Source: Tricharina praecox (taxonomy: Eukaryota). Taken from it: 64,000 nucleotides of DNA. Each line of letters starts with the position of its first letter. Position 1 is the first letter of the stretch. The stretch lies in NCBI RefSeq assembly GCF_024521635.1, contig NW_026250432.1, forward strand, positions 310,001 to 374,000. Reading direction: 5' to 3'. Shown here piece after piece: positions 1,924-64,000 of this stretch. The notes beneath the pieces were generated by a model. That model worked only from the letters and a program-made list of their open reading frames with translations, had not been told where the DNA came from and ran no database searches. The position numbers were made by a program, and so were the translations under genes.

Positions 1924-4509
1924 ATGGCCAGTCCTTCGCCCCAATCCCCCAAGAAGTTGGGAACGCAGGTAGGACAAGGTCTCGCCAAAGTCCTCGGAAT
2001 CGAGCTCCAGCATGCCACGCCCTACGAGCAACACGTTACCCGTGGGGAGTCGATCTACTCGCTCAACGGGGCAGCAGGCGCTTATATCGAGGCCGAACCG
2101 ACCGTGGTGGAGTACTTCTCGCAGTTCAAACCCAGTGGCAGCGGCATCGGACAGTACTTGCTCGATTTCTTTCCGTTTATCACATGGATCGGGAGGTGTG
2201 TAACTCTTGTCGAGGAATGAAGTGGCTGGAATACCGTTGGCTGATCTAGTGCAGATACAACCTTAAGTGGGCTACTGGAGACTTGACTGCTGGTATCACG
2301 GTGGGATGCGTCGTTATCCCTCAAGGAAGTGAGTGCCATTGGATCTCAAAGTTGTTGGGAGAATTGTCGCTGACCAATGTTAGTGGCCTACGCACAACTG
2401 GCCCAGCTTCCCCCGGAGTTCGGTCTCTACTCTTCGTTTGTCGGTGTGATGATTTATTGGTTCTTTGCGACTTCCAAGGACATCACCATTGGACCAGTCG
2501 CCGTCATGTCGACGCTCGTTGGCAACATCGTTGCGGACCTCCCCGCTGATCAGCGGCCGACTATCGCGTCTGCGCTCTCGTTGATCTGCGGTTCCATCGT
2601 TTTCTTCATTGGACTTTTCAGACTGGGATTCGTAGTCGACTATATCCCGCTGCCTGCTATTGCTGCTTTCATGACCGGATCGGCGCTCAGCATCACGGCG
2701 GGACAGATTCCCAAGATGATGGGAATCAAGGGCTTCAGCACTAGAGGACCGGCGTATGAGATCTTCATCAACACCCTGAAGAATTTGGGCTCTACCAAGA
2801 TCGACGCGGCAATGGGCCTCAGCGCTTTGGTGTTTTTGTACCTCCTCCGATGGATCTTCACTAGCTTCCTGCCCAAGAAGTTCCCGTCGATGCAGAAGAC
2901 GTGGTTCTTCATCGGTACCCTGCGCACGGCTTTCATCATCCTGCTGTACACCATGATTTCGTGGCTGGTAAACATGAACCGACGGGACGACCCGATGTTC
3001 GGCATCCTCGGGTCTATTCCCAGCGGCTTCAAGCATATGGGCGTACCCACGATCGACGGCGACATCATCAGCAGCTTCACTTCGCAGCTACCGGCAGCCG
3101 TCATCGTGCTGTTGATCGAGCACATTGCCATTTCAAAGTCGTTCGGAAGGATCAACAACTACACTATCGACCCCTCGCAGGAACTGATCGCCATCGGCAT
3201 CACCAACATCCTTGGTCCGTTCTTCGGCGCATACCCTGCAACTGGATCCTTCTCCCGTACCGCCATCAAGTCCAAGGCCGGTGTGCGCACCCCCTTCGCT
3301 GGAGTCATCACCGGTGTCGTGGTCCTCCTCGCCATCTACTGCCTCACCGCGGTCTTCTTCTACATCCCCGACGCCTCCCTCTCCGCCGTCATCATCCACG
3401 CTGTGGGTGATCTGATCACACCCCCGAACACCGTCTACAAGTTCTGGCGCGTCTCCCCCGTCGAGTGTGTCATCTTCTTCCTAGGAGTGCTGGTGACCGT
3501 CTTCACCAACATCGAGAACGGAATCTACTCCTCCGTCGGCGCTTCCGGTGCCCTCCTCCTCTTCCGCATCGCCAAAGCCCGTGGCCACTTCATGGGCAAA
3601 GTGAAGGTCCACACCGTACTCGGCGACCACCTGATCGCACCCGAGTCCGTAATCCCCAGCACTACCACCTCCATCACCGGCTTCCCCGGCCTCCCCACCG
3701 CAACCGGCCTCGACACCGCCGCCTCCTCCTCCACCGCCCTCACCATCCCCAAGAACTACGGCGCGATCAACGCCCCCGCCAACAAAAACTACGAGGCCAC
3801 CCGCAACGTCTTCCTGCCGATCGACCACCGCGACGGCTCGAACCCGGCGGTCGACATCGTCAACCCGTACCCGGGCGTATTCGTCTACCGCTTCACGGAG
3901 GGCTTCCTCTACCCGAACGCGTCACACTACACAGAAGCACTAGTCGAGCACATCTTCGCGAACACACGACGTGGGAACCCGCTCTCCCTCGCGACCAAAG
4001 CGGGCGACCGAGCGTGGAACGACGCCGGCCCGAAGAACCCAGAGGCGCAAGCGCAGCTCGAGTCGTCAAGGCCCGCACTGCGCGCGATCATCCTGGACTT
4101 CAGCAGCGTCAACAACGTGGACATCACATCGGTACAGAACCTGCTCGACGTGCGCAACCAGCTGGACCGGTACGCGGAGCCCGACGTGGTGGAGTGGCAC
4201 TTCGCCGCCATCGGCAACCGCTGGACGAAGCGCGCGCTGAGCTCGGCGGGCTTCGGGTTCCCGCCCCCCAGTTCGGGCGGCCGCGAGGGCTGGCAGCCCG
4301 TATTCTCTGTCGCGGAAGTGGGCGGGCATATTGAGCTGGGAGGAGGCGAGATGGAGCGAGAGATCGAGAAGTCGAAGGAGGCGGATCCCGAGGCGGCAAG
4401 AGCGCTCACCGGAAGACGCAGGGTCGTGCCTGTGGGAAGCATTAACCTCCCGTTCTTCCATATCGACCTCGAGGGCGCCGTGGAGAGCGCGATCAGGAAT
4501 GTGCGGTAG
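1924..4509 (+). CDS. SulP/SLC26 sulfate permease with C-terminal STAS domain; exons 1924-2195, 2255-2328, 2384-4509
   Basis: Splicing restores GDLTAGITVGCVVIPQGMAYAQLA; GLYSSF, GSFSRTA and STAS-type ILDFSSVNNVD motifs; canonical GT-AG introns with CTGAT/CTGAC branch points. Confidence 0.95.
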
Positions 4510-5301
4510 TGCGGGGTGGGCAAGATGTGCACGATGTCTCGTTTTGTTTGATTTGCATGGGCGCGGCGTTGTGGACACGGACGGTGGGGTTGTTTTTTTC
4601 TTTTGGGCGACGGTGTATATATCTTGCGCGGGTACTTGGCTTGCTTGGCTACTTGGCTTGCGGTCGGTTGGGTGTAAATAATTATGATGTATCTATCTAC
4701 ATATCTATGGGGAGATTGGTATCTTATCTACTATGAGGAACGGGACTTTTTTCAAAGTGCTTTGATCGGAATGGTGTGTGGCCGAGTGATGGCGGTGATG
4801 CGGACTCGCTTCGACACTTGCTACATACCGGGACTTCACCACTCACCTACATTTATTGGTCCAGATGTAACCTGCTCCCGAGAGAGTGACTACTGGAGAG
4901 ATAATACGCCGCCGAGTGACAGAGGGCGAAGACGGTGGTGTTGTGTATCGTATGCTATCATGTTAAGGGAGATGGTGGTTGCCATTGTCGTTGCGAGGAT
5001 GGAACAGCTTGGAATGATGAGCTGTATGGTACAAGTCGGTAGGTTACTATCGGGGAGATCTAATCTACCTTTGTTATTTAGATATGCCGTGACATTCCAA
5101 GAACAAGGACTGCGGCTTCACTTGTGACTCCACTCTATATCTTGCTGAGCTATTGCGTGTGGTGGTGGGGTTGTGAACTCGAGTAGCTCTCTCTGCGCGC
5201 GCGACCCCCCACTCGTCGTCATCCATGTGAGCGATCTAAAACGGCGCAAGTCCCCCGCGTCCCCCTCCCACGCCCCACCTCATCACCCTCACAACACCAC
5301 G

Positions 5302-6246
5302 ATGACCACCAAGACCGACCCAACGCTCAAGTCCGTCTCGGGGCACTGGTTCACCGCGTTCCCGATCCCGGAGGTCGCCGCCGTCCCACAAACCTACCAG
5401 TTCACCGACCGTACGCTCTCAGCGCAAGTATTCACGCACCCGTCCTTCGCCAACGGCACTGGCCCGCACAACGCGATCCTGAGCTTCGAGGGCGCAACGC
5501 TCATCACCACGCTCGCCACGCTCAACCTAACCGTGCTCTTCCCCGCCACGCCCGTCTCAACCCTATCCGACCTCCGCCTAGCCATAACCTCTCGCGCACT
5601 ACACGCACACCTCTCGCGGGCGCTCTCCCTCCCCTCCCACCTCCGCGCCGCCTCGGCCGACACCGCCAGCACCGAGCGCGCGCAGTCCGAGCTGTTCGAG
5701 GCGTATATTGCGGGGGTGTTCCGGGAGCTGACGGCGGCGCGGTTCGACGAGCTGCGCGCCTACCACCTGCAGCTGCTGCAGCCGTACATTGTCGCGTACC
5801 ACGCGCTGCACCGCTCTGCCGCGCACCACCCCGTCATCCGCGAGAAGCAGCGGAAGCAGGAGATGGCGACGTACACCGTGCGGCTGATGGAGTACGCGGC
5901 CAAGAACCGGCTCGAGCCGCCCGTGTTCGAGTTCACCTCGAATGGCGCACAGGGCCCGCTGGTCCAGTGGGGCTGCCAGGTCATCCTCGGCGGAGTGCAT
6001 GTGGCCAAGGCTGTCGCGGGGAGTAAGAGCAATGCGAAACATCTGGCGAGCGCGGAGGCGTTTAAGGCCCTGCCCGTCCTGGTGGGCGAGAAGGATCCGC
6101 CACATACCACGACGGAGAGGAGGAAGAAGAAGGAGTTCTATAGGGCTGCTGCAAAGACCCGTGCCACTCCCGCACTGTTTGGACAGCCTGGCTGGGCGCC
6201 CTCCAACGCTGCGCATATGGCTACCGCGCCAAGTTGGGGATCGTAG
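5302..6246 (+). CDS. Degenerate RNase III-like domain plus C-terminal dsRNA-binding domain (~314 aa, intronless)
   Basis: VFTHPS...HNAILSFEGA...SELFEAYIAG follows the RNase III pattern LTH-S...NERLEFLGD...ADxFEAxIGA; RLMEYAAKNRLEPPVFEF...W-C-V-LGG...AGSKSNAKHLASAEAFKAL is a typical dsRBD; first ATG at 5302. Confidence 0.75.
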   Translation: MTTKTDPTLKSVSGHWFTAFPIPEVAAVPQTYQFTDRTLSAQVFTHPSFANGTGPHNAILSFEGATLITTLATLNLTVLFPATPVSTLSDLRLAITSRALHAHLSRALSLPSHLRAASADTASTERAQSELFEAYIAGVFRELTAARFDELRAYHLQLLQPYIVAYHALHRSAAHHPVIREKQRKQEMATYTVRLMEYAAKNRLEPPVFEFTSNGAQGPLVQWGCQVILGGVHVAKAVAGSKSNAKHLASAEAFKALPVLVGEKDPPHTTTERRKKKEFYRAAAKTRATPALFGQPGWAPSNAAHMATAPSWGS

Positions 6247-9586: not shown

Positions 9587-10137
9587 CAGAGCACTTCTTC
9601 TTTGAAGAGGAGGTCGGCAAGAGAGAATGGCGCTTAACTAGGGCTACCCCACGCCTCACGGGTGACGGAGCAGATATCCGAGTGAGTGAGTGAGCGCTCG
9701 GAAACGTGGTTGTTGGTGCGAGTGCGAGTGACTGCCCGGTGCCCGGGTACCTGTGCTACGGGAGCTTGGAAGGAGCGCACTGGGTCCAAGACTCGATACG
9801 AGGCCAGAGATGCCAGAGATTGTCGGTGGATAGATGTTTCTTTTCTTTGGACACGAAGACATAACGTTTTTGCACCACAGGCCGGGGGGGCGGGATGAGC
9901 ATCCGCCGATCCCAACGATCGCCGGCAACGAGGCTGGCCGCCGCTTCGGCGACTCTCAACCCTCCGAGATGAACGGTGCAGCCGGCACAGGGGAAGAGTA
10001 CGTCAGCGGCGACAGGGATCGTTCTGGCGTATCAAAGTCTGTGTGTTTCTGGTGTTTCTGGCGTTTCGGACCCGGTGTGGGGTAAACGATCTGGAAAGAC
10101 GAGGGCTGCGGGAGGGCGGAGGGCAGAAAGATGGCTG

Positions 10138-10144
10138 TGAGTCA
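10138..10144. promoter_or_regulatory. Candidate Gcn4/CPC-1 site TGAGTCA upstream of CPA2
   Basis: Perfect consensus ~0.7 kb upstream of the CPA2 ATG. Confidence 0.4.
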
Positions 10145-10856
10145 CGGGCTGCGATCCGCGGGCCTTTCCACACGGACTGGCGGCCCAGCGCCGGTGCTAG
10201 TTATAGTTCTTTCCGCCGAGCCGGCCGGAGTGGCCCCAACCCGCCCGCTCTCCCAACAGTCTCCGCTGTCTAGCACCAACCGTCCGTGAAGTCCAAGTCG
10301 CGATCGCGGTGCGCCATACGCGATCCAGGGCCACCGCTAAGCAATCACTCTAAAAAAAATAGATACCCAATTGCCACTCCTGATTGGCTCGCTTAGTGCC
10401 CCAAGTGCGAACGCTTTTTTTTCTCCCACTTCCCACTCCGAGCAGCGAGGAACAAGCCGTCAAACTGAAAAGAAGGGAAGGAAGAAAGAAAGCGGACGGA
10501 AAAAACTTGGAGGGGGACCAGAAGAAAGAGTCACACAAGATACCAAGAGCGGAAAGCCCGCGGCGACTATCTATACCCTCTCTCCGTCCCGCTTCTCTCC
10601 CTCCTCCTCCTCCTCTTCTTCTTCACTCACAACGATATACCACTGTCCTCCCCCTCCCCCCCACATCCCCCCCTCCAGTACCCCACACACCTCTCCCATC
10701 ACCTCAGCTCCGAAAAATTAAAAAGACCACCCCCCACGTGGACTCATCTGGGGCTCAACCTTTCGGTCACCTCCGTCCTTCGTGACCCTCTCCTCCTCCT
10801 CCTCGTTGCTCAATCTACCTCTCCTATAGCGTCCGTAGTCCTACCTTTCGCCCGCA

Positions 10857-13800
10857 ATGGCTTCGTCTCTTCCCCGCCGGTTCGCCCTCTCCTCCTCCTC
10901 CCTCAGACCGGCCCGGACACTACTGCCGTCGTCTTCCACACAGTCCTCGAGGGCTCTGTCATCGCTGTCGAGGCTGCTTCCCCGGGCACAGAGCAGTAAT
11001 GCCGCTTCGAAAACTGTAGGCCAGACCTCCGCGAGGTGGGCGGCCATCCAGCAGGCACGAACATTCACCTCGTCGAGGAAGTTGTTCGCCGACGAGGCCC
11101 CCTCGACCAAGGCCTACATCGCCTCGAACGCGATTGCCCGTGTCCAGGACCTGGTGGATGTCAACAAAGTGTTGGTCATCGGTAGTGGCGGCTTGAGCAT
11201 TGGACAGGCGGGAGAGTTTGACTACTCTGGTACGGACCACTCGATTCTCCCTCATTGCTGGCTCAACTGCTGACGGTGGTGACGAATAGGCTCGCAGGCT
11301 ATCAAGGCACTCAAGGAGGCCGGCAAGAAGTCGATCCTCATCAACCCAAATATCGCGACCATCCAGACGTCGCATTTCTTGGCCGATGAGGTTTACTTCC
11401 TGCCCGTCACCCCGGAATACGTCACGCACATCATTGAGCGGGAAAGGCCAGACGGTATCCTGCTCACCTTCGGAGGACAGACCGCTCTGAACGTTGGTGT
11501 CCAGATGGACAAGATGGGTATCTTTGACCGTTACGGAGTCAAGGTGCTAGGAACCCCAATCAAGACTCTGGAGACCAGTGAGGATCGTGACCTGTTCGCG
11601 AAGGCTCTGCACGGTATGGCGCCTCCCTAGAATCGGTGATGAGCTTGAGACTGACATGCTGTGCAGAGATTGATATCCCGATCGCTGAGTCCATCGCTGT
11701 CAACACTGTCGACGAGGCATTAAAGGCCGCCGAGACGATCGGATACCCTCTCATTATCCGTTCCGCCTACGCCCTCGGAGGTCTGGGATCTGGATTCGCC
11801 AATAACCCCCAGGAGCTCCACGATCTGTCGGCCCGCTCGCTCTCGCTGTCGCCCCAGATCCTGGTTGAGAAATCGCTCAAGGGCTGGAAGGAGGTCGAGT
11901 ACGAGGTTGTCCGTGACGCCATGAACAACTGCATCACCGTCTGCAACATGGAGAACTTTGACCCTCTCGGTGTTCACACCGGTGACTCCATCGTCGTTGC
12001 GCCTTCGCAGACGCTGAGTGACGAGGAGTACCACATGCTCCGGTCCGCCGCCATCAAGATCGTCAGGCACTTGGGTGTCGTCGGAGAGTGCAACGTTCAG
12101 TACGCGCTCCAGCCCGACGGACTCGACTACAGGGTCATCGAGGTCAACGCTCGTCTCTCGCGATCGTCCGCCCTGGCTTCCAAGGCCACCGGATACCCGC
12201 TCGCCTACACCGCGGCCAAGATCGCTCTCGGACACACTCTGCCTGAGCTGCCCAACGCCGTCACCAAGACCACCACTGCCAACTTTGAGCCTTCGCTCGA
12301 CTACATCGTCACCAAGATTCCCAGGTGGGATCTGAGCAAGTTCCAGAACGTCAACCGCGACATCGGCTCTTCGATGAAGTCGGTCGGTGAAGTCATGGCT
12401 ATTGGACGTACCTTCGAGGAGTCCATCCAGAAAGCCATCCGTCAGGTTGACCCTCAGTACCTTGGATTCCAGGGTGCTCACTTCGAGGACTTGGATGAGG
12501 TTCTCAAGAACCCCACCGACCGCCGATGGCTCGCCGTTGGTCAGGCCATGTTGCACGAGGGCTACAGCGTCGACAAGATCCACGACATCAGCAAGATCGA
12601 TAAGTGGTTCCTGTACAAGCTCGAGAACATCGTCGAGATGTACAAGAAGCTCCAGGACATCGGATCGCTCTTCGGCATCAACAGCGAGCTCCTGATGCAG
12701 GCCAAGAAGATGGGGTTCTCCGACAAGCAGGTCGCCATCAGCGTGGGCTGCACCGAAGATGAGGTTCGCGCCAGGCGTAAGTCGTTCGGAATTCACCCCT
12801 GGGTCAAGAGGATCGACACCCTCGCCGCCGAGTTCCCCGCCGAGACCAACTACCTCTACACCACCTACAATGCCACCGAGCACGACGTCAAGTTCGAGGA
12901 CAACGGAGTTGTCATTCTCGGATCTGGAGTCTACCGTATCGGATCGTCTGTCGAGTTCGATTGGTGTGCCGTTTCTTGCACTCTCGCCCTCAGGGAGATG
13001 GGTGTCAAGACCGTCATGATCAACTACAACCCCGAGACCTACTCGACCGATTTCGACACCGCCGACAGGCTGTACTTCGAGGAGCTCAGCTACGAGCGTG
13101 TCATGGATATCTACGAGCTCGAGAACTCTACCGGTGTTGTCGTGTCCGTCGGAGGACAGCTTCCTCAGAACATCGCCCTCAAGCTCAAGAACAAGGGCGC
13201 CAAGGTTCTGGGAACTGACCCCGAGGACATCGACCGTGCTGAGGACAGACACAAGTTCTCCAAGATCTTGGACAGCATTGGTGTCGACCAGCCCGCCTGG
13301 AACGAGTTGAAGTCGGTTGATGAGGCCCGTGTCTTCGCCGACAAGGTCGGATACCCCGTCCTCGTTCGTCCCTCGTACGTGCTGTCCGGTGCCGCCATGA
13401 GCGTCATCCGCAGCGAGTCGGAGCTCGAGGCGAAGCTCAACAACGCCTCGAGCGTGTCCCCCGAGCACCCCGTCGTCATCACCAAGTTCATCGATGGTGC
13501 CATGGAGATCGACGTCGACGCCGTTGCCTCCAAGGGTAACCTGATCATCCACGCCGTTTCGGAGCACATTGAGAACGCCGGTGTCCACTCCGGTGACGCT
13601 ACCCTGGTCCTTCCCCCCGTCACTCTTGACGACAGCATCATGGCCCGTGTCAAGGAGATCGCCGAGAAGGTCGCCAAGGCATGGAAGATCACTGGTCCCT
13701 TCAACATGCAGATCATCAAGGAGGAACTGGAGGACGGCAGCTTTGCGCTCAAGGTCATCGAGTGTAACCTCCGTGCCTCGCGTTCGTTCCCCTTCGTCTC

Positions 13801-53869: not shown

Positions 53870-55478
53870 GGTGGTTCGGTCCGGCGGTTGGGGCTAGCTA
53901 GCGGGTTCGTGGGGTGGTTCAAGCTCGATGCTTGTTTTGGGTTGAGTTGTATGGAGTAAGATGTAAGATGTAAGTATCGAAGTCTATGTGACCAGGTGGA
54001 AAGTGTAAAGTGTGATAGATATGTGTTTGGGCAGCCTGATGCTCGTAACCTTCCGTGTGATTGTGAATGTCGCGAACAAAGAGCTGCAACATCGGTGCCA
54101 ACAAGCCAACACGCTCTCCCTTATATGCTTGCTCCAGTAGCCGCAGTCGAACGAACGGAGCAATCTCCGGACGTCAGGCGGGGAAACCGGATTTACTTTG
54201 GGGCTTGTACTCCCCGCATGGCCACGAGGCTGGCAGAGCGGATCGCCCACGTCACGGGCGGAGCTGAGGTGTTTGCGCTCTCCAAAAGGAGAATGTACAT
54301 ACACAGGACCATTTACTCTACAATTCTGCAACAGCATGATTGGTGGTGAGATGTAGCCAAGTTTAGTGTGGCTGTGTTCCACCGCCGTGTCGTGTCCCGT
54401 CGCCTTGCGCAGCGAGGAGAGATGGGGTATGTGCAGCCACGATGAGTCGGGCTTCTAGATGCCTCGAGTCCTTTTGGGTAATCATTGGGTGGCCTCCGTA
54501 TCTACTTAATATATTCTTCTTTGAACTCGAGCACGAATTCTCATCGTGAGTCATAGTGCCACTCGAGTGAGATTTTATGGACAGGCGCGAGTCACTTTAG
54601 TAATCTTAATCGCGGCTATTCTGTCTGTGTTTGCTCTTTTCCCGTGTCCTTTCCTTGGGAGCTGCTTACTCTTTTCGTGCTCGGTCAGCGGGCGGGGGGA
54701 GTACTATGTAGTAGGTAAGGTCACTCCGAACGCCAGCACAATGGGGGGCTGTGGGACGGAGCCGTCCCGCGCAGGTTCTCTAGAGGACCGGTCCGTCCAG
54801 TCCGGATACCCTACAGGTACATACAAGGTAGGCATTTGATGATCTTAGCGTGACGAGGGTTCTATTTTCTCGCGGCCCGAAGGCTATTTCGCAATATGTA
54901 GGACAGTAGGAACCGAATCTTCGCCGCGTCGAGCGGAATTTCCGCTGCTGGGAAATCCCATTATCCGCTATATACATATGTAGATGGAGAACATGCTTAT
55001 GTAGAGACGTGGAATAGTGAGGGGCGGACATGCAAATATAAGGCAAGGTTATGGCGGAGTTTGTCCGTCGCGGAGGCATCCATCACTTTATAATTTTCGA
55101 ATTCATATTTCCAGCACGGAAAAAACCCCGCGTGGTCCAGTGGTCTAGGCCATGCGTTTGGCGAGGTGAGTTGAGGGGAGGTTTTGGGCTCAACCTGGAT
55201 GACAGACCTTTGTATTCAGCTTTTGGGGTTTCCAAGCCACCCGGCGGGGGTGGTGATGGTTTTTGTTTTTGTTTTTGGCGTGAACAGAGGGTGCACTAGC
55301 TAGATATCACTTGGTAGTTTCACGTGATACGCCTTTACGCGGCCGGCTGTAGAGGCGAGAATTCATTTTCTCTGCGTCCTGTTCAGGTAATAATCTGTAT
55401 TCAAGTGTCAAAGAAGCGGAACCAAGACGTTACCTCTGATGTGAGTTACTACGGTATCATGTTTAGAACAAATACCTG

Positions 55479-55594
55479 GGTGGATATAGGAAGATATGGG
55501 TGGATATGGGCGGAAATGGATTGATATTGGATTTATGGATTGATATAGTATTATATGGGCGGATATGGATTGATATGGGAGGATATGGGTGGAT
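55479..55594. repeat. Degenerate ~10-bp minisatellite (TGGATATGGG-like)
   Basis: About 11 consecutive imperfect GATAT-cored units. Confidence 0.75.
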
Positions 55595-56794
55595 GGTAGG
55601 CGGGTGTGGTGCTAAAAATTATCCGGTAATAAGTGGGGTAGAAAAAGAATGCAGCCGAGATAGGTATTGCAAATTACCTAGTGTGGCTGGTGAGGGCATC
55701 GTGTACGAGTAACGTGAAGGGTAGATACTGGATCACATTTGAGCACCACGGCGGGATTCTGTACCTTTGCTCGATTTCATGGCTGAGCATTCGGACAGGT
55801 TGAGTGGCACTAGCAGGGTGGCTATGCGAATACCCATGAAACCATCTAGATAGTAGTTTGAGTCATGCTCCGTCAGCTATCAGTGATTCAGTTTGGCTAA
55901 TCATCTTATCTGTTTCGCTCCCTATGGGAGGTGTGCGCACTCACGTACCGAGGCAGTAGTTACCTATCGTACACACCAAGTAATGAGAAACAGCGCCTCG
56001 GATGTGGTTTTTCTTAGCTGTACCGAATCATTTCCATGTTGAACAATGTAGATATATCATTTATGAACGGCCGTCCAAAAGATGGCAGGGATATGCAGGC
56101 ACTCACAGCTAGGCACCAGCCATACGGTACAGCCCTACAACTGGGTGGACTACTCTACTACATAGGTGGGTCTTTAATCCGGTTCCTCCCTGTGGCGAAC
56201 CATGTGTCTCGTCCTGATGACTAGCAAGGGTGCGCCGTAGTCTACCGGTAGATAGGCTCGGTGCGAGAATAGCCTTGAAACCAACCGACCAACCGCGACA
56301 TCTGGAGTGTGGCAATATGTCACCTTGACGTGCCTAGGTATGGTTCATAAAAGTTGGGCAACTGTCATCTCGCTAGGAAACACCATGAACCTGAGGCTGA
56401 TTGCAGAGCGCGCGTGAGCGGATACGCCCCTACAACCATTCATACATACCATCTGGCCAGTGTGTGCCCGGTGTATAGTATTGGAGGTTTCATCGACGCG
56501 TGCCCCGCTTAGGTTGGCCCGGTCGGGGGTGATCCGCACGTATGTGCCGAGCATTCATTAGGTACCTGCCCTTCAACAGCTCGCGGAGTCTTATCGTCCG
56601 GAGTTGCTATTCAGACTCTTCGTTGATTGATCTACTCAAACAGCTGACGAGTGTCGGTTGATGTGAGTTGTTACGCGCCATTCATCCTGAGCGGTTTGTG
56701 TGTTACCCGCATGGGTCCGAGGTGAGCATCGCCTCTCATCGCAACATGTTCCCTCACCACAGGTTCACTCACAACAACACACAATCACTCTGCA

Positions 56795-56874
56795 AGCCGC
56801 GCACTTGCACCCAGATCAACTCCCTGAGCCGCGCACTTGCACCCAGATCAACTCCCTGAGCCGCGCACTTGCAC
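56795..56874. repeat. Perfect 32-bp tandem repeat, 2.5 copies (AGCCGCGCACTTGCACCCAGATCAACTCCCTG)
   Basis: Units at 56795-56826 and 56827-56858, partial 56859-56874; no spacers. Confidence 0.92.
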
Positions 56875-57071
56875 TTCGAATCAACAGCACCCCCCCGCGG
56901 AGCCGTACGGACGAGAGACCCACGCTGCCTAAGTGCGGACTCACGGCGAGATTATAACCCCGAGACTTCCCTCCTGGAATTCCGTCAAGTACTGCCGCAT
57001 ACAAAGTTGCGCGATAGCCTTGAATTCACCACCATCACTGCCTTGCACGATCTGGATAAACGGTGCCCACG

Positions 57072-60000
57072 ATGCACGAACCTCAACCGGATGCCATACC
57101 CAAACCCCAAGCGGATGCCATGCCCGACCCCCAGCCCGATGCCAAAGACTGCCGCTCCACACTCATAAAGAAAAAACTTGACGACAAGAGAAAGGCTATG
57201 TTGACGCAGGCAGGGCATGTTAAGTCCGTGCCACGCTATGAGCCCATCTTCTTCCCAGAAGATCTGATCAAGGACGTTTTGAGCCGGAAAACGGTCAAAT
57301 GGCTTCTGGAATGCGATTGCAGTTGGTGCGAGAAGCACACTAAATATCTATCGCCGCAAATCCACGGGGAGAAGCGGACCGACTACCTCGGATGCATTAT
57401 GGCAGATGCCCTGAAACTGTATGCTCTGCTAGTTTTCATTGAACACCCTGCTATCATTGGCGGCTTCGTGTCCAAGGGCAAATACGATAATATCCTGAAC
57501 GATAAACTTACCCCGGACAATCTGAAAGAAACCCATCTGACAGGAATTGTGTCGGCAACTCGACAGAGAACCAGCGAGATGGAGGATCTTCTCGATTCCT
57601 TTCTGAAAAAAAAGCATTGGTTCTCTCCGCAGTTCTTCAAAGGCCCCTGGTTCGAGGAATTGGATTCGGAGAAGGTTCTGCCTTTCATCAATATCACGTA
57701 CATCGGAGAAGGCGCCTTCGGCAAGGTCTATTCTTTCCAGATCTATCCAGCCTACAAGGGACCAGAATATGGAGATTCGGTGAGCGCTCATGTATCTAAA
57801 TATTTTCACTTATGCATTAAAGTGCTGACATGACACTGGTACAGACAAAGTTCGCGATGAAGGAAGTGTACGCGCCTACAAATACCTGTGGCGCGAATTC
57901 TGCGACGGACAATCCAGAAGTCGATAAGGTGAATTCCGAGGCGAAAAATCTTTTGAAGATTCGCAACGAGCTCGGTGACGAGGAACACATCATCAAGGTG
58001 CTGAAAATATTCCGTCACGGCGAAAATATATGCTTCATATTCCCACTGGCAATTGGAAACCTTGCAAAACTCATGGAGGAGCCTTGGATGCATCTTTCTA
58101 TTCCTGGACATCCGATTTGCCAGCACTCCATCTGGAATGAAGTCCTTGGCATGATGATGGCTCTCGGCAGGTTTCACAACCCACCAAATAAAAACAGTTG
58201 GAGCGGTGTTCATGCAGACATTAAGCGTACATACTACCACTCTGTCACGCCGCAGACAGTCCCTTTTAGATCTCTGGCTGACATGCATCGCACAGCTACG
58301 AATATCCTGGTATTCGAGGACGGCAGATTGGTTATAACCGATTTTGGCCAGTCTTCGATCATGCAAAAGAGAAGTTCTGGTGGGACCAGAAGGGTTAATC
58401 AAACGCCTGGAGAGCAAACATACCGCCCCCCTGAAAACTCCGGCGATACAGACATGGGGCTTGAATATGACTACTGGGCGATCGGCTGCGTTCTCCTGGA
58501 GATTCTTGTGTTTGTGGTCACAGGGACTCAAGGAATTCGGGAGCTGCTCGAAGCAAGAGGGCGCAGAACTTACAGAACCGACTATTACTATCAAGTGGAG
58601 GATGACAAGCGTTTTCTCCATCCTGCGGTTGAAGAAATAATGACACGATTGGAGGAGGGAATGAAGGACCGGCGGTTGGATAGTGGGTTTACGGATGCCG
58701 TTGTGGGTATTGTGAAATCCATGTTGAAGGTGGATCCCAAAAAGCGCCTAGACGTGGTTACAGCGGCAAGAAGGTTAAAGTATAACCTTAAATATTGGAG
58801 GCGCCGAGCAAGTGAAGTTAACCCAGTGAGCTCTTGTGGGGGTAGCTTTACTATACTCAATGTCTCAGATGCTGCCTCCGAAACCGCCTCAAGCGAGGAA
58901 TCGACTACCACAACGGTCGACGCGGAATCCGAGATCAACACTAGTAGGATTGACGACAACGAAAGTCCTTCGATCTCTCAATCCCCAGGTGACACTCTGG
59001 GTAGCAGCTCGCACCCTGAGCACCCTCCCTCAAACCGGGGAGGGGAAATCGCAGCAGGTTCCTCCGACGGTACATCTTCAAGTAGCATCTCGCGAAGACT
59101 TCGTACCATCCCTCAGCCTATCCCAGCTTCAGCCGGCGAGCCCCGCCGGCAGACACCCGACCTCATATCGGTCGACACCCGATCTTTGAGAGACATTCCC
59201 GTGCAACAATTGCCGCCAACATTTGCCCGCACGCGTCCCGCATCAAGCCCGCGGGCTCCTTCGCAGTCCTCGAGTTCGTCCAGCCTGCCTCACCCCATCG
59301 CTGAACGGACAAGTGGTCAATCGATCAGTACATCCATATCCAGTAGTGTGGAGAAGCCCAGGCCGTCTATCGATGGACCGAAGCTTTATGAAAGCGATGG
59401 TGAGATCAACTGGCATCGAGACGAGTCCGATTTGGATGGGAACCCAAGGGAAAGTTACCGACACAAGGTGTGCGTTATGGCTGGAATGGCCCATGGAGGA
59501 CAGCCGAAGATAAAAATGCTCGATAGTGGAGGTGCCATGTATCGAGACTTCTGTGCGTTAAGAGTAGTAGTTGATGCATTTTTCGAATACTAATCTTTTA
59601 CAGTGCTGGGATCGAACCCTGTCATTTTCCCGATATACGCCTTTAAACGGCCCCAGGATGGGGAAAACAGGGAATACCTACTAAAAGTCAACCATGTATC
59701 TTTTGAGTTTCCAGTTGAAAAGGGTCAGTCCACTGCACCATAGCCCTCTTGCATATCTTTTTGCAGAACCGCTGACCGACCAAGCTGTCTATCATCTCCA
59801 GCAGGTCTTGACGGAGCAGAAGATCCATGTCAGGTTAGTCATGTGGCATGGGCCACGTCGGTGGCGAACACACAGTGCTGACCATAAAACGTGAAAGCTT
59901 ACGAGCCACTGTTACGCTCAAAAAGAAAGTAAAACTTTTCCGCTACTCCCCATATCCGTTGGAACAATGCCTTGTGCAACTATGGACCGAAGTCGGGGAG

Positions 60001-60546
60001 TCGATACGCAATCAAGAGGTTATGGCACAAAGCAATGCACCACCGGAATTCGTTAGCCGTTTAGTCTGTTTCAGCACCACCAACACTGACGGAAATGTTT
60101 CATACCATATCTCTTCTATTCCCCGTGAGTGTCCACTTGTTATTCCTTCTCATGAAATATGCTAAATCCCCATTCCCCCAGTGATAAACGGCGAAAATAT
60201 TCTTGAAATGCAGAGTGATACGGTTAATTTCTGCATCAAGATAAGCCGCCGGGAACAGGCCAAAATTGTGGGTTACAAAATGACGGCGTGTGTTACGGAG
60301 CGTCCTCCTGGGATAAGTTTTAAGAAGGAAATGTTCCAAAAACATGAATCCAAGAATAACGAGGAAATATACGCGAATATCCAATTGAAGTTCAAGAATA
60401 TCGAGGGTAAGCAGGTTATGAGCCTAGCATTTACCCACCGAGATGGGCCTGTCTATATGTATAACTAACTAACTCTCTAATGACTGTTGCTAGATTTAAA
60501 CAGTTTCAAGAACTGTTACGATGGACTGAAGAAAGCGGCGCGGTGA
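57072..60546 (+). CDS. Fungal non-RD Ser/Thr kinase (~1006 aa) with Ser-rich linker and unknown C-terminal domain; exons 57072-57779, 57845-58226, 58296-59552, 59604-59723, 59785-59833, 59898-60124, 60182-60406, 60494-60546
   Basis: IGEGAFGKVY, FAMK, HADIKPTNILV (after splicing), ITDFG, YRPPE, DYWAIGCVLLE; seven GT-AG introns give one open frame; 3' exon limits are less certain (alternative acceptor at 59766). Confidence 0.82.
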
Positions 60547-60653
60547 TGTAAAATAATAATAATAAGAAACATTGAGGGGGGCGGGGGAGTTGATGTATAT
60601 ATACGGGTATTCAGAGCTGTGAAAAGACATCATCAGCATCATCATCATCATCA

Positions 60654-62648
60654 TCACGCATTGTAGCCATTCCTTTTCTCCTCCTCGAACTTTTGTGTCT
60701 GTCTTCGCTCCCAGAACTTGCGATAACTTAGCGTCACAACCAGCAAGATTACCGTTAAGAACGTAAAAATCCACATCTCCTCGTCAAGTTCAGGAACGAG
60801 GTACCCATTTTTGGATTTCGTCAATCGTATGTATCCCATCGAAAGCAACGTCTGTAATAATTCCCTATGAGCTTTCCATCGTACTCGGATTACGAGGAAG
60901 AAGGAAATTACTAACCGCGACAAAAGTTGCCGGCAGGTACACGAGCGTCAAAAGCGTGATTGTCTTTAGCGCGCCGCCATCCTGGTGCGCTTTCTGCGAG
61001 AGTTCCAGCATGATCTGACTATCGTAGCGCGCACTCTCGAGTGCTCTAAAGTCGAGGATCGTGCGGAACTATTCCATCCGCTATGGTCAGCATTCTCGCA
61101 GGGCCCACAGCTTGGGGGGGGGGGGGGGGGGGGGATGTATGTACGCACCAACGTAGACACCCCCTCAATCCGCCGCAGCAGGTGCTCCACGCGCTGAGCC
61201 TGCACTGCCGTTTCCCCCAGAAACCTGACGAAGTAATCCGCGAGCGCTGCCTTCGGGTCTGCCGAGCAGGCGGTGAGCGAGGGGCCGGGCACCGCCAGCC
61301 CCGGGAGCCGGTCCCGCAGCCCGCCAAACACCCCCACGTTCAGACGCAGCACATGGTCTAGCAACAGCACTGTGTCCTTGAGTACCTGCAGCCCCTGGAT
61401 GTCTGCAAACGAGACGTGCTCGTCGGGCTCCTCCGCCCCAGGGTCTTTTGAGAGGCTCGTCAGGGCAATGTCTGATCCCCTCATTCCCGCCTCCCGCAGA
61501 CCAGTCAGTGTGCGCGGCGTGTGGTTGCTCAGCTGTGCGAAGTGGTGGCTGGGGACGCTGAGGGACTTGCTTTGCTGTGCCGGTAGTCAGAGGGAAGGCC
61601 GCCGGTAGGAAGGGGAGGGGGGGGCGCACCGTCGTTTCAAACTTCGCTTCAAGGTGGTTGACATACTCCCGCCAGCGGTAGGTCATGGCGTATGTCACAG
61701 CGACATGCAGGTCCATCCAGCGCATGCCTACCGGTGTGCTCTCGTAGGCCTGTAACCAGTGCTGCTGGAACGTGAGGGACGCGTTCACGAGCACGAAGGT
61801 GTGTCCGTGGTTCGGCGCGTCGTAGCCGTGGTACACGCCCATCTGCCGCACAGAATAGATGTCCACCGCCTGCTTTGTGTGTTCGCTGTCGTTCAGCTCG
61901 ACGTGCTTGCTTAGGTAGCACAGACCTGTGAATAGAGTACAGACACCGGTGAGCATATATCCCCTAGGTGTACGGGCATCACGTGGGAGTACGGCGGTGG
62001 CTTACGGAATGAGCCCGACGCTTCCCCTTGGAAGATTGGACGGCTGGCAAAGGTTTCGTCCACAGACGATGTCTTGGTGCCGAAAGCCTGGAGCAAGTCC
62101 ATAAACTCGCTGAAGACACCGAGGCCACTCAACAGAGTCCGACACCCGTCCTCGGTTATCTGGAGCTTGCCCCACGAGTAGCCTTGAACGATGAGACTGT
62201 TTTTCAAATCATCAGTTATGGGGGATCACCAGAGCTACTGTCTAAAAGAAAGAAAAACATACATTATACGAGTTCCTGTGAATGTTGGAAACTTCTAAAA
62301 ACCGCCAGAGCATAAACCGTAAGTCCTCGGGCCACATCTAGTCGTGCTGACAAATTTGCACGGAGCACGATAAGAACTAACCGTGAGGTATTCCTGGATC
62401 TTCAGTTCAGACGTCAGAGTTTCCGCTGCAAGATGTAAGCTGAGCACATGGAAGAAGAGAAGTACTGCATATGTATATAGTAGGGAATAGTGCCGCTCAC
62501 AGTATCCTTTGTCGCAATGTCTAACCCGCACAGCGTTGGTTTTGGAGAACAGACGGGCAGCGTGCGAGCTGAAACGGGAGTCGTACTCGCCGGAATTGAG
62601 GCGGTAGGGGTTGTCGATGTGAGAACTGGCCGGAAATGATGCTACCAT
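60654..62648 (-). CDS. CorA-like membrane protein (~495 aa); exons 62648-62501, 62425-62382, 62294-62263, 62196-62006, 61925-61630, 61574-61149, 61068-60916, 60851-60654
   Basis: Splicing gives one open frame with SWGKLQIT, YSVRQMGVYH, WREYVNHLE, a long helix, then LKTITLLTLVYLPATFVATLLSMG and a second TM helix (MWIFTFLTVILLVVTL), matching the CorA/Mrs2/Alr1 two-TM C-terminus. Confidence 0.8.
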
Positions 62649-62903
62649 GATTCCTAGTACATAGGCAAGCTGAGGAACTAGAGCAAGTAAGGTAATATGT
62701 ACCTATGTAGTTCACGGGGTGGGGAATGGGGGAAGCCAGAGAGGAATAAATTCACGGCAAAGCGAAGCTGTAGAAGATATAGCATAGGTAACCGGCGCCT
62801 TGTTCATTTTGTTCCGCTTGTCATTCTGCCACTGTCACTGTCACTGCGCTTCACTCCGCCTCTTTCCTACACCCCCGCAGTATCAACCACCCACCGCTTG
62901 TGT

Positions 62904-63306
62904 TCACATGAGCACAGCAACCGTAGGGAAACTCATGTCCTGGATGTACCTGATTTCCTCCTGCATTCCACAGCCCCATACGTTAGCGAACCACTCTACT
63001 TAGCGGTATCATGGGTGCTGTTGCGGGCGCCCCGCCGACAGTTACTTACGTCGGTCAGCAGCTGGGGAATATCGAGTTCGAAAATTCCGTTTACGGCCTA
63101 AGACGGTACGGTCAGCCGAACCAGGCACATTTCAGGATCCCCCGTAGTATCCACCCCCAGACGGAGCCCATCATCAACCGCTTAACTCGTGATCACTGGT
63201 CACTCACCCTGGGCCGTGTGTAACAGTTTACCCCAAATAGCTCGTTCAGGCGTTTCTCCAACACGCTGAGCTTGAGATATTTCGCTGTTATAATCTGCCT
63301 CGGCAT
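62904..63306 (-). CDS. Three-exon 67-aa microprotein; exons 63306-63208, 63097-63050, 62960-62904
   Basis: Donors GTGAGT and GTAAGT, branch points GCTGAC and GCTAAC, acceptors TAG and CAG give MPRQIITAKYLKLSVLEKRLNELFGVNCYTRPR-AVNGIFELDIPQLLTD-EEIRYIQDMSFPTVAVLM*. Confidence 0.75.
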
Positions 63307-64000
63307 TGTTTTCCGTGTTGATAGGGGGTATGTACGTTCGGTTCGGAGGTGGGTTGTGGTTAACCGGTAATTTGAGATCACAGGTGGAGAAAGAGTAAAA
63401 GAAACACCTTTCTCCTCAGGCTATATACTATCTACCATATCAGTGAAGCACAACTTTTTTTAAGGCAGCATCACCATCCCCACCACCATGCGCAGGCAGT
63501 TCCGCCAATCAGCGGAGCGAGATCACAGCCGGGGCCCAGACAAACGGACAGACGGACGCAATCTCCATGGTCCCCTACGGTGCCAGGATTCACATTTCGC
63601 GTGCGCACGCACTACTCTGCATTCTGCACTCTGGAAGGTGCGCACCCCGACACCGCTCCAGCGCAGCAGGGTGGCATCCCCCGTATCTACATACAATATA
63701 TTTTTATATAGGTAGTCCGATAATCGGAGAAAAAAAGGGAATATCATATGTACAAACAGACCTACGTACGAAAGGACTGGCTGCGGCCTGGATACCCCGG
63801 CACTGAGGCTGATTGATTGGTTGGTTGGGAAATCACCTTCGGTGCCTACCTTATAGTGGTATCTACATGCTAACTGACTATACCTACCACACCTACTCTT
63901 TGGCCAGGCCAGGCAGCCGCTCAAAGTTCACAACATCGTCCTCCCCACGCAACGTGCGCGAGCCCAGCTTCCCCTGCCCGATCAAGATGGCCAGTGATGG

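Follow-up and report, generated by a model that had tools for sequence, protein, structure and literature searches.

A conserved cluster of kinase, CorA-like and small-protein genes in the fungus Tricharina praecox

Three spliced genes at one locus

The region 57072..63306 of the window (the whole 64,000-nucleotide stretch of Tricharina praecox DNA analyzed here) holds three transcribed, spliced genes, which encode a kinase, a CorA-like protein and a small protein. These had been described beforehand from the DNA letters alone as three packed, intron-rich genes; spliced contigs confirm the gene models, and the proposed spacers of 107 bp and 255 bp are exact. In the public annotation they appear as three separate genes with consecutive accessions (ending in ...325, ...326 and ...327), in gene order.

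A single contig in each of two public runs, X1 and X2, spans the locus (5375 or 5373 nt). Its approximate extent is 56845..63378, and it merges plus- and minus-strand transcripts, so it does not represent one mRNA. The contigs were anchored at window position 56900, which corresponds to position 5320 of record 1 (5375 nt), and at site 63330, which lies 48 nt from the end of the X2 contig. All 16 introns (seven in the kinase gene, seven in the CorA-like gene and two in the small gene) are spliced out in the contigs from both runs, and GT..AG or CT..AC ends were found at the 15 intron joints listed, of 16. Because these introns, which lie on both strands, were precisely removed, we took X1 and X2 to be RNA-derived. 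The two runs, which possibly represent one strain, differ at one site across the locus.

The kinase and CorA-like genes converge on a 107-bp spacer between their stop codons (60547..60653), through which the RNA contig is continuous and at which a (CAT)n run is located (60628-60656). A spacer of 255 bp (62649..62903) separates the stop codon of the small gene from the CorA-like ATG and lies inside an uninterrupted piece of the RNA contig (62501-62959). Upstream of the kinase, some 3 kb (about 53.9-57.07 kb) are, as the preliminary description stated, without recognizable genes, with no ORF longer than 156 aa, no Rfam match and only short tandem repeats. On the other side, the small gene lies 694 bp from the end of the window, and a comparison of flanks is possible on one side.

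The same description had guessed by eye that the kinase is less GC3-biased than other genes, and the computed values bear this out: GC3 is 0.55 for the kinase, 0.72 for the CorA-like gene and 0.66 for the small gene, vs. 0.62-0.87 in 11 large exons of other genes of the window. A similar difference is seen in the metagenomic relative L003 (kinase exons 0.52-0.61, CorA-like exons 0.78-0.85). The sharp gap between the kinase and CorA-like genes does not suggest shared expression, which counts against functional coupling.

A divergent non-RD kinase with its own flanking domains

The kinase gene (57072..60546, plus strand) has eight exons (57072-57779, 57845-58226, 58296-59552, 59604-59723, 59785-59833, 59898-60124, 60182-60406 and 60494-60546) and encodes 1006 amino acids, with the TGA ending at 60546 and the splice joints read in the RNA contigs. 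The public model of 858 aa misses the intron 59834-59897 and stops early, and the RNA-supported protein of 1006 aa corrects it. A 43-nt version of intron 4 (59724-59766) was ruled out, as the spliced contigs show 59724-59784.

The protein begins with a domain (residues 1-205; 57072..57686) that belongs to a family without a Pfam match above threshold. This domain was found in P0001, P0002, P0004 and P0005 by alignment, and L003 DNA matches it at 39% identity; P0003, a partial gene call, lacks it even though L003 DNA matches that domain. The protein kinase domain follows (residues 208-517; 57693..58756), with two introns inside and the motifs GEGAFG, AMK, HADIKPTN and DFG. The Pfam Pkinase family (PF00069) matched P0001 with 84.5 bits, against a cut-off of 31.7, and the catalytic residues of eukaryotic protein kinases (the Gly-rich loop, the Lys, the catalytic Asp and Asn, and the DFG) can all be read. 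The catalytic loop has HAD rather than HRD, in agreement with the earlier designation of the kinase as non-RD, and this feature is common to all five aligned family members (HAD in P0001, P0002, P0003 and P0005; HSD in P0004). The protein is a divergent non-RD (HAD) Ser/Thr kinase.

A Ser/Thr/Pro-rich linker (about residues 540-720; 58823..59362), whose counterpart gap in L003 (11589 to 12011) is much shorter, connects the kinase domain to a C-terminal domain (about residues 720-1006; 59363..60543) that is spread over six exons; the two largest exons of this domain (74-75 aa), each scanned alone, had no Pfam match. Conservation with the L003 kinase spans residues 788-985, and most of the domain is missing from the 858-aa model. 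A kinase tree leaves the five family members in a polytomy and does not tell orthologous copies apart.

Non-RD kinases include those of innate immunity, of the IRAK, RIPK and Pelle type. The window kinase resembles them in that the Arg before the catalytic Asp is absent, and ScRIPK (8ho6) is among its best PDB sequence matches (E about 7e-8). However, it resembles all solved kinases only very distantly (Nek7, PKR and CDK2 score level with ScRIPK), and Pfam shows no relation between its flanking domains and death, TIR or RHIM modules.

A CorA-type protein without the Gly-Met-Asn motif

The CorA-like gene (62648-60654, minus strand) encodes a 495-aa protein (P0010) in eight exons, which are defined by the spliced contigs (62648-62501, 62425-62382, 62294-62263, 62196-62006, 61925-61630, 61574-61149, 61068-60916 and 60851-60654). 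An alternative model, variant A, with the donor GTATAA, was ruled out by these contigs and by P0010.

The AlphaFold2 model of this protein (pLDDT 85.7, pTM 0.74) predicts a cytoplasmic alpha/beta domain, a long stalk helix and two C-terminal membrane helices. A Foldseek search against the PDB returned 74 chains at E <= 0.001, the best of which was CorA of Thermotoga maritima (E 2.6e-10, about 450 aligned columns). The likeness to bacterial CorA (T. maritima; 5jrw, 4i0u, 3jcf) extends over the whole chain, with a TMt of about 0.6 at 9-12% identity. The differences concern three features. The membrane hairpin region (residues 404-478; 60708..60996, minus strand) consists of helix 1, a short beta-hairpin loop (438-452) and helix 2 (455-478), and the first helix ends in YLPATFVATLLSMGY at the place where CorA has its GMN filter, so that the Gly-Met-Asn motif is absent; TLLSMGY is common to P0163 and the L003 CorA-like protein as well. 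In addition, PF01544 reaches 19.5 bits, under its gathering cut-off of 27 bits, and covers residues 404-471 only, and an extra insert, disordered in the model, occupies residues 245-292. Without the Gly-Met-Asn filter, the protein is unlikely to act as an ordinary Mg2+ channel.

Our analysis placed P0010 in PF26616, a family restricted so far to Ascomycota and comprising 774 representative clusters at E <= 0.001. P0010 has a precomputed match to PF26616.1; local Pfam scans gave no PF26616 match for P0010 or its relatives. Whether features (0.97) or structures (TM 0.67-0.81) are compared, the nearest Atlas clusters are Ascomycota clusters in which 60-95% of the members carry the PF26616 domain, and a 69-sequence alignment revealed a YLPAxFVA motif common to P0010 and its PF26616 relatives. 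Our literature search found no function or partner for the CorA-like transporter domain, PF26616 or IPR058257. A kinase domain was present in none of the 24 CorA-like relatives scanned (mostly the longest of 150 listed, plus P0163 and P0011), and no fusion proteins were found.

A conserved 67-residue protein

The small gene (63306-62904, minus strand; exons 63306-63208, 63097-63050 and 62960-62904) encodes the 67-aa protein P0160. Single-sequence AlphaFold2 (pLDDT 78) predicts a beta-alpha-beta-beta-alpha-beta fold, with strands at residues 4-9, 29-35, 38-43 and 64-66 and helices at 13-24 and 49-57. The L003 small protein has equal length and aligns without gaps, with 37 of 67 residues identical and 53 of 67 similar, and both introns interrupt the same codons. 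Its conservation as a separate gene across two species indicates that it is not a reading-frame accident.

Pfam assigned P0160 to no family, HMA included, even at E <= 10, and no similarity was found to the N- and C-terminal parts of the kinase or to the CorA-like protein (best E 1.6). In Foldseek searches of the PDB there were no matches at E <= 0.001 (best E 0.12); GlnK and ACT were among many ferredoxin-like matches, with the PII and ACT folds matching only weakly, at E of about 0.13. The Atlas structure neighbors include HMA domains of heavy-metal ATPases (TM 0.54-0.62). P0160 has no CxxC motif, and no Cys or His is conserved between the two orthologues.

Linkage and duplication of the genes

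To the small and CorA-like genes of L003 corresponds a kinase on the same stretch of DNA, and all three genes lie inside 9.5 kb with changed order and orientation: the CorA-like gene at 3223-5103 (plus strand), the small gene at 5881-5562 (minus strand) and the kinase, which has the same C-terminal domain as the window kinase, at 10001-12754 (plus strand). A tblastx comparison of the 64-kb window with the 22-kb L003 sequence placed all HSPs of at least 40 bits within 57.2-63.3 kb of the window, the best HSP outside this interval reaching 31.8 bits, and no other gene recognized in the window had a counterpart in the 22 kb of L003. It should be noted that the cross-species linkage rests on one outside genome, L003, so that ordinary microsynteny together with block duplication could give the same picture.

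T. praecox also encodes another CorA-like protein, P0163, with 59% identity to P0010, and another kinase, P0002, with 51% identity to the first. Their accessions (ending in ...334 and ...336, on a contig equal in length to that of the window) place them one gene apart and about seven genes beyond the trio of the window; this adjacency, and the shared contig, are judged from accession order rather than from DNA. The existence of a diverged second pair indicates that the pair survived duplication and long divergence. The two T. praecox CorA-like proteins are 58.8% identical to each other vs. 48.6% and 49.5% to that of L003, suggesting that the duplication may postdate the split from the L003 lineage.

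At the kinase locus L002, whose sequence is truncated on the downstream side, neither a CorA-like nor a small gene was found within the 5 kb upstream, and the DNA upstream of the kinase in L002 and L001 has no match to the window. Trichophaea hybrida has a CorA-like protein with 36% identity, and none of the nine kinase matches comes from this species, which counts against linkage. The linkage of PF26616 to a kinase and a small protein was seen here in this subfamily only.

Weakly predicted binding between the small and CorA-like proteins

A structure-based complex test of the small and CorA-like proteins gave a score of 0.48 (runs of 0.48, 0.13 and 0.48), vs. 0.00 for the best of three controls; at least 66% of contacts are shared between the runs, and the partner pLDDT is at least 72. 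Of 78 solved complexes, 51 reach the mark of this test, as do 2 of 108 mismatched pairs; at scores of 0.60 or under it is reached by 5 of the 78 solved complexes and by all four passing mismatches (of 180). According to the tool's own grading, 0.48 falls in a range where most predictions are wrong, except for pairings that were already likely. The test gives weak support for binding between the small and CorA-like proteins.

Interpretation of the cluster

We regard the locus as a conserved, lineage-restricted and previously undescribed three-gene cluster of a Pyronemataceae-type fungus. Since these genes recur close together in another fungus and, as a CorA-like/kinase pair, nearby in T. praecox itself, they may work together, and our tentative first choice, plausible at a little under an even chance, is a trio whose products act together, and are functionally coupled, at the membrane. 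The proposal of a co-inherited unit in the preliminary description has real, if limited, support, from the trio found together in L003, the duplicated CorA-like/kinase pair and the weakly predicted binding. What the trio would do mechanistically is speculative. The 67-residue ferredoxin-like protein would most likely bind the CorA-like protein as a small cytoplasmic subunit or regulator, and the kinase, with intact catalytic residues and N- and C-terminal domains of its own, would be the likely regulatory input, phosphorylating the CorA-like or the small protein. An analogous arrangement is that of GlnK (PII), a small ferredoxin-fold regulator encoded beside the AmtB channel, which it plugs. 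By analogy, the window also has a small beta-alpha-beta-beta-alpha-beta protein encoded beside what may be an oligomeric channel-type membrane protein. GlnK differs, however, in having about 112 aa and a T-loop, for which a protein of 67 aa has no room, and the two have no sequence relation; binding, moreover, is only weakly predicted here.

The adjacency could instead reflect descent only, the three genes being unrelated, fast-evolving accessory genes that happen to be neighbors and were copied together by a local segmental duplication, with residual microsynteny accounting for L003 and no functional coupling. We consider this quite possible, if on balance doubtful. As local block duplication predicts, accession order puts the two T. 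praecox copies into a stretch of about 11 genes on a single contig, and the comparison covers one other genome. The differing codon usage of the kinase and CorA-like genes points the same way, as does the lack of fusion proteins among the 24 CorA-like relatives; PF26616 is, besides, so large (774 representative clusters at E <= 0.001) that its members would be common chance neighbors. Descent alone accounts less readily for a linkage that has outlasted changes of order and orientation while no other gene seen in the window occurs in the 22 kb of L003, for a pair of which neither member was lost while the copies diverged to 51-59% identity, and for the predicted, if weak, binding of the small and CorA-like proteins. 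A PF26616 subfamily that stays with a kinase and a small protein through duplication and rearrangement offers a first handle on the role of the family, with two candidate partners. If the proteins do act together, they would represent a new type of kinase-controlled fungal membrane protein complex; if they do not, the locus is a clean example of a block duplication mimicking a module.

Two further readings concern the physiological role. The genes might form a cell-death or allorecognition module, in which the non-RD kinase would detect non-self or danger and in response open a CorA-like pore, with the small protein as inhibitor or adaptor. The non-RD catalytic loop, the CorA fold without its ion filter and the expansion and fast evolution of PF26616 in Ascomycota are compatible with such a role, and the CorA effectors of type III CRISPR systems offer an analogy, although these belong to a prokaryotic CRISPR-Cas context, whereas the genes here are eukaryotic and intron-bearing, with no such context in the window. 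A fungal precedent is het-B of Podospora anserina, where a HET-lectin gene (Bh) and a PII-like gene (Bp) are adjacent, with clustering conserved and relative orientation varying (PMC10890737). The likeness lies in adjacent fungal genes that include a small ferredoxin-fold protein and keep their clustering while orientation varies; the precedent is of such a protein beside a death-domain gene, the difference being that a HET domain is present there and absent here, where the partners are a kinase and a CorA-like protein. Pfam scans of the exons and full proteins found no HET, NLR, HeLo, gasdermin or TIR domain, and likewise no patatin, so that the tie to allorecognition and immunity drawn in the preliminary description was not borne out. 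Our literature search found nothing that ties CorA-like proteins to kinases or cell death in fungi, the X1 and X2 contigs differ at one site (two runs, maybe the same strain), and P0160, with 67 aa vs. the roughly 100 residues typical of PII-like proteins, matches PII/ACT only at E of about 0.13. We therefore consider a cell-death role improbable. The same low probability applies to its fullest form, a self-contained, duplicating, three-part membrane-attack or conflict module made of a GMN-less CorA-type pentamer pore, a 67-residue subunit and a dedicated non-RD kinase. In such a module the ferredoxin-fold subunit would hold the pore closed or sense a small molecule, and the kinase would trigger the pore, reading a signal through its private N- and C-terminal domains; if real, it would parallel, in a eukaryote, the CorA effectors of bacterial defence and the PII-like partner at het-B. 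A unit for metal-ion homeostasis, in which an altered ion selectivity would make the CorA-like protein a different cation transporter and the small protein would be an HMA-like metallochaperone, appears less probable still. It would fit the CorA fold and the HMA domains among the structure neighbors of P0160 (TM 0.54-0.62), but the ferredoxin-like fold is generic, the GMN motif is missing, and P0160 has neither a CxxC motif, nor a Cys or His conserved between the two orthologues, nor a Pfam HMA match at E <= 10.

A further observation concerns the transcripts of the small and CorA-like genes. The unbroken RNA piece between them prompted us to consider whether the small ORF is a uORF in the CorA-like mRNA. 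We rejected this as the whole story because in L003 the small gene follows the CorA-like gene and has the reverse orientation; in T. praecox, read-through or overlapping UTRs between the two genes are possible.

Gene models and transcript support

The region 57072-63306 carries three intron-bearing genes, whose hand-built models were checked against public spliced contigs. They encode a kinase (57072-60546, + strand), a CorA-like protein (60654-62648, − strand) and a small protein (62904-63306, − strand), and their closest protein matches are annotated Tricharina praecox (Pezizomycetes) proteins: a kinase-like protein of 858 aa (P0001) and hypothetical proteins of 495 aa (P0010) and 67 aa (P0160), respectively. 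The GenBank accessions of this trio are consecutive (KAI5844325, 326 and 327), in the same order as the genes in the window. One spliced contig from each of two public sequencing runs (5375 and 5373 nt) aligned to 56900-63500 with every predicted intron removed, and the splice joints (15 tabulated and one not shown) read GT..AG for the + strand gene and CT..AC for the − strand genes. Both runs carry only a guessed "RNA?" label; we infer an RNA origin from the clean removal of sixteen introns across both strands. The contigs place a kinase intron at 59724-59784 and select a CorA-like model identical to the deposited P0010. The tight packing of three intron-rich genes noted in the preliminary description is supported by the contigs for all three, and its spacings hold exactly, at 107 bp separating the convergent stop codons and 255 bp from the small-gene stop to the CorA-like ATG.

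The spliced contig extends across the convergent gene pair as well as the spacer separating the two − strand genes. It therefore shows that transcripts overlap or abut; a single mRNA is not demonstrated. One unbroken piece (62501-62959) connects the last exon of the small gene with CorA-like exon 1 across the 255-bp spacer, and could reflect transcriptional read-through, UTRs that overlap, or a bicistronic transcript, among which the contig cannot discriminate. A (CAT)n microsatellite (60628-60656) lies in the 107-bp convergent spacer and overlaps the CorA-like stop codon, and a 21-nt homopolymer (G on the + strand) is found within a CorA-like intron (61114-61134).

A non-RD kinase with a further C-terminal domain

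The deposited kinase P0001 (858 aa) leaves the intron at 59834-59897 unspliced, runs into a stop and ends early; the spliced contigs back four further exons (59834-60546 region) and a product of 1006 aa, the last ~290 residues of which form a further, conserved C-terminal domain. The protein matches Pfam Pkinase (84.5 bits), and its catalytic features are all in place (Gly-rich loop, AMK lysine, catalytic Asp and Asn, DFG). Directly ahead of the catalytic Asp it carries Ala, and each of the five aligned family members has Ala or Ser there, making it a non-RD kinase. It is very remote from all solved kinases (best E ~5e-8: Nek7, PKR, ScRIPK and CDK2), and a word-based search retrieved nine proteins at E <= 0.001, five of which make up one narrow family. 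Neither its 205-residue N-terminal domain nor its C-terminal domain, the latter scanned as its two largest exons, matched a Pfam family. An in-frame 69-nt intron (58227-58295) separates DIK from PTN in the catalytic loop, and occupies the same position in relatives (approximately 11023-11091 in the metagenome locus L003). Three family members from metagenome contigs (P0003-P0005) read "DIKR..." where intron-blind gene calling ran through it. An imperfect 24-bp repeat (57079-57144) codes for PQPDA-type repeats at the kinase N-terminus.

The CorA-like and small proteins

P0010 was modeled by AlphaFold2 with a pLDDT of 85.7 (69-sequence alignment), and Foldseek matched Thermotoga maritima CorA over the whole chain (E 2.6e-10), with 74 chains at E <= 0.001. 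The CorA profile reached 19.5 bits, under its cut-off of 27, and the GMN filter site reads YLPATFVATLLSMGY, with no GMN; TLLSMGY is retained in the T. praecox paralogue P0163 and in the L003 relative. P0010 has a precomputed PF26616 match, its closest Atlas clusters are Ascomycota PF26616 "CorA-like" proteins, and an exhaustive HMMER search returned 774 representative clusters at E <= 0.001 (153 at E <= 1e-10). Based on the whole-chain fold match, the missing GMN, the PF26616 match and neighbors, and the family size, P0010 belongs to a large, uncharacterised family of fungal proteins that have the CorA fold but lack its filter. Metagenome and ENA fragments on a 3505-bp contig (P0057 and P0166) and a 3981-bp contig (P0021 and P0027) are 54-88% identical to parts of P0010; closer relatives of this gene therefore exist, on short contigs.

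The small protein P0160 matched no Pfam family even at E <= 10. Its single-sequence model (pLDDT 78) has a beta-alpha-beta-beta-alpha-beta fold, for which Foldseek gave only generic ferredoxin-like matches (best E 0.12), including ribose-5-phosphate isomerase subdomains, GlnK/PII and ACT. Its Atlas neighbors include Ascomycota hypothetical proteins of 66-75 aa, at scores (0.87-0.88) that make them a lead only. The L003 counterpart is also 67 residues long and aligns without gaps (37 identical, 53 similar), with both introns at the same codons; because length, residues and intron positions are kept, the small protein is encoded by a separate, conserved gene.

Recurrence of the gene set

A kinase-family scan of metagenome contigs yielded six loci, among which L003 (22.2 kb from a contig of 114,944 bp) carries relatives of all three genes: a CorA-like gene (3223-5103, +; 49% identical overall to P0010), a small gene (5881-5562, −) and a kinase including the C-terminal domain (10001-12754, +). 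The order is kinase (+), CorA-like (−), small (−) in the window, versus CorA-like (+), small (−), ~4 kb and kinase (+) in L003. When the whole window was compared with L003 by tblastx, all HSPs >= 40 bits fell within 57.2-63.3 kb, the best elsewhere reaching 31.8 bits; the other genes named in the window are housekeeping genes, and the L003 flank holds an amino-acid permease. A terminal open frame (L003:21038-22219) with faint RVT_3 (reverse-transcriptase-like, E 0.006) and LPD15 (E 0.0012) matches may be what is left of a mobile element close to the cluster.

T. praecox itself encodes another CorA-like protein (P0163, KAI5844334; 494 aa), which shares 58.8% identity with P0010, and another kinase (P0002, KAI5844336; 50.9% identical), both reported on a contig of the same length, 481,516 bp. 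Since the trio accessions run in gene order, we read accession order as gene order, which should place this second pair about seven genes past the window end, separated by a single annotated gene. This order matches that of L003, where the small gene is the one in between, and the intervening gene is predicted, perhaps at somewhat better than even odds, to be a small-protein paralogue.

Functional coupling and alternative explanations

The component families are already known, and the cluster is a conserved fungal one in which a membrane protein is paired with an enzyme of signalling type; our literature search found no paper on the cluster and no partner described for PF26616 proteins. That the three products are functionally coupled is a tentative reading, somewhat short of an even chance. 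Under such coupling, the CorA-like protein would probably oligomerize into a membrane channel or pore with non-Mg2+ properties, and the small ferredoxin-fold protein would probably dock on its cytoplasmic domain and regulate it. In functional terms the nearest analogy is GlnK with AmtB, a small protein regulating a membrane channel. The kinase, non-RD with intact catalytic residues, would probably supply control, its private domains serving for docking or sensing. Pairwise complex modelling, proposed in the preliminary description, gave "weak support" for the small and CorA-like pair, with a score of 0.48 (runs 0.48, 0.13 and 0.48) that exceeds the best of three controls (0.00) but lies in the range (<= 0.60) where most passes are wrong unless the pairing is likely beforehand.

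In favour of the proposed co-inheritance of the trio stand the recurrence of all three genes in L003, the second T. praecox pair and the complex score. Against it, the 5 kb upstream of the kinase in locus L002 contain no partner gene, although the downstream side of that locus is cut. Adjacency by descent alone is a possible reading too, if a little more doubtful than coupling, as local block duplication copies neighbors irrespective of joint function. Also against a unit, the outside evidence comes from one genome, the window shows one flank of the cluster only, the kinase tree is a polytomy, the codon bias of the kinase and CorA-like genes differs (GC3 0.55 vs 0.72), none of 24 CorA-like relatives scanned has a kinase fusion, and Trichophaea hybrida has a CorA-like protein 36% identical, yet contributes none of the nine kinase matches. 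The cell-death or allorecognition module originally suggested has a precedent at Podospora het-B, where a small PII-like protein gene clusters with an adjacent death-domain gene, the clustering being conserved and the orientation variable (PMC10890737). In the trio, however, Pfam scans found no known death or recognition domain, and we consider such a module improbable. A role in metal homeostasis is slightly more improbable still.

Codon bias and surroundings of the cluster

The lower GC3 bias of the kinase, previously judged by eye, was borne out by computation: 0.55, versus 0.62-0.87 in eleven exons of other window genes, with 0.72 for the CorA-like gene and 0.66 for the small gene. The contrast between kinase and CorA-like gene recurs in L003. 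Pfam analysis of window 1-53000 identified ordinary housekeeping genes, all with GC3 above that of the kinase, including a sulfate permease, an RNase III/dsRBD protein, the carbamoyl-phosphate synthase (CPSase) large chain, a conventional kinase, ERV/ERGIC, PWWP, PAP2, RNA 3'-phosphate cyclase (RTC), DUF726, a PHD/Myb protein and a WD40 protein.

In both loci, 3-4 kb without a recognisable gene precede the kinase (window 53900-57071; L003:5900-10000), with no sequence conserved between the two stretches; they might represent extended promoters or leaders, or non-coding transcripts missing from the annotation. The window stretch contains a degenerate 10-bp tandem array (55477-55594; TGGGTGGATA, ~12 copies), and a perfect 32-bp tandem repeat of 2.5 copies (56795-56874) is located roughly where the kinase transcript contig has its 5' end.
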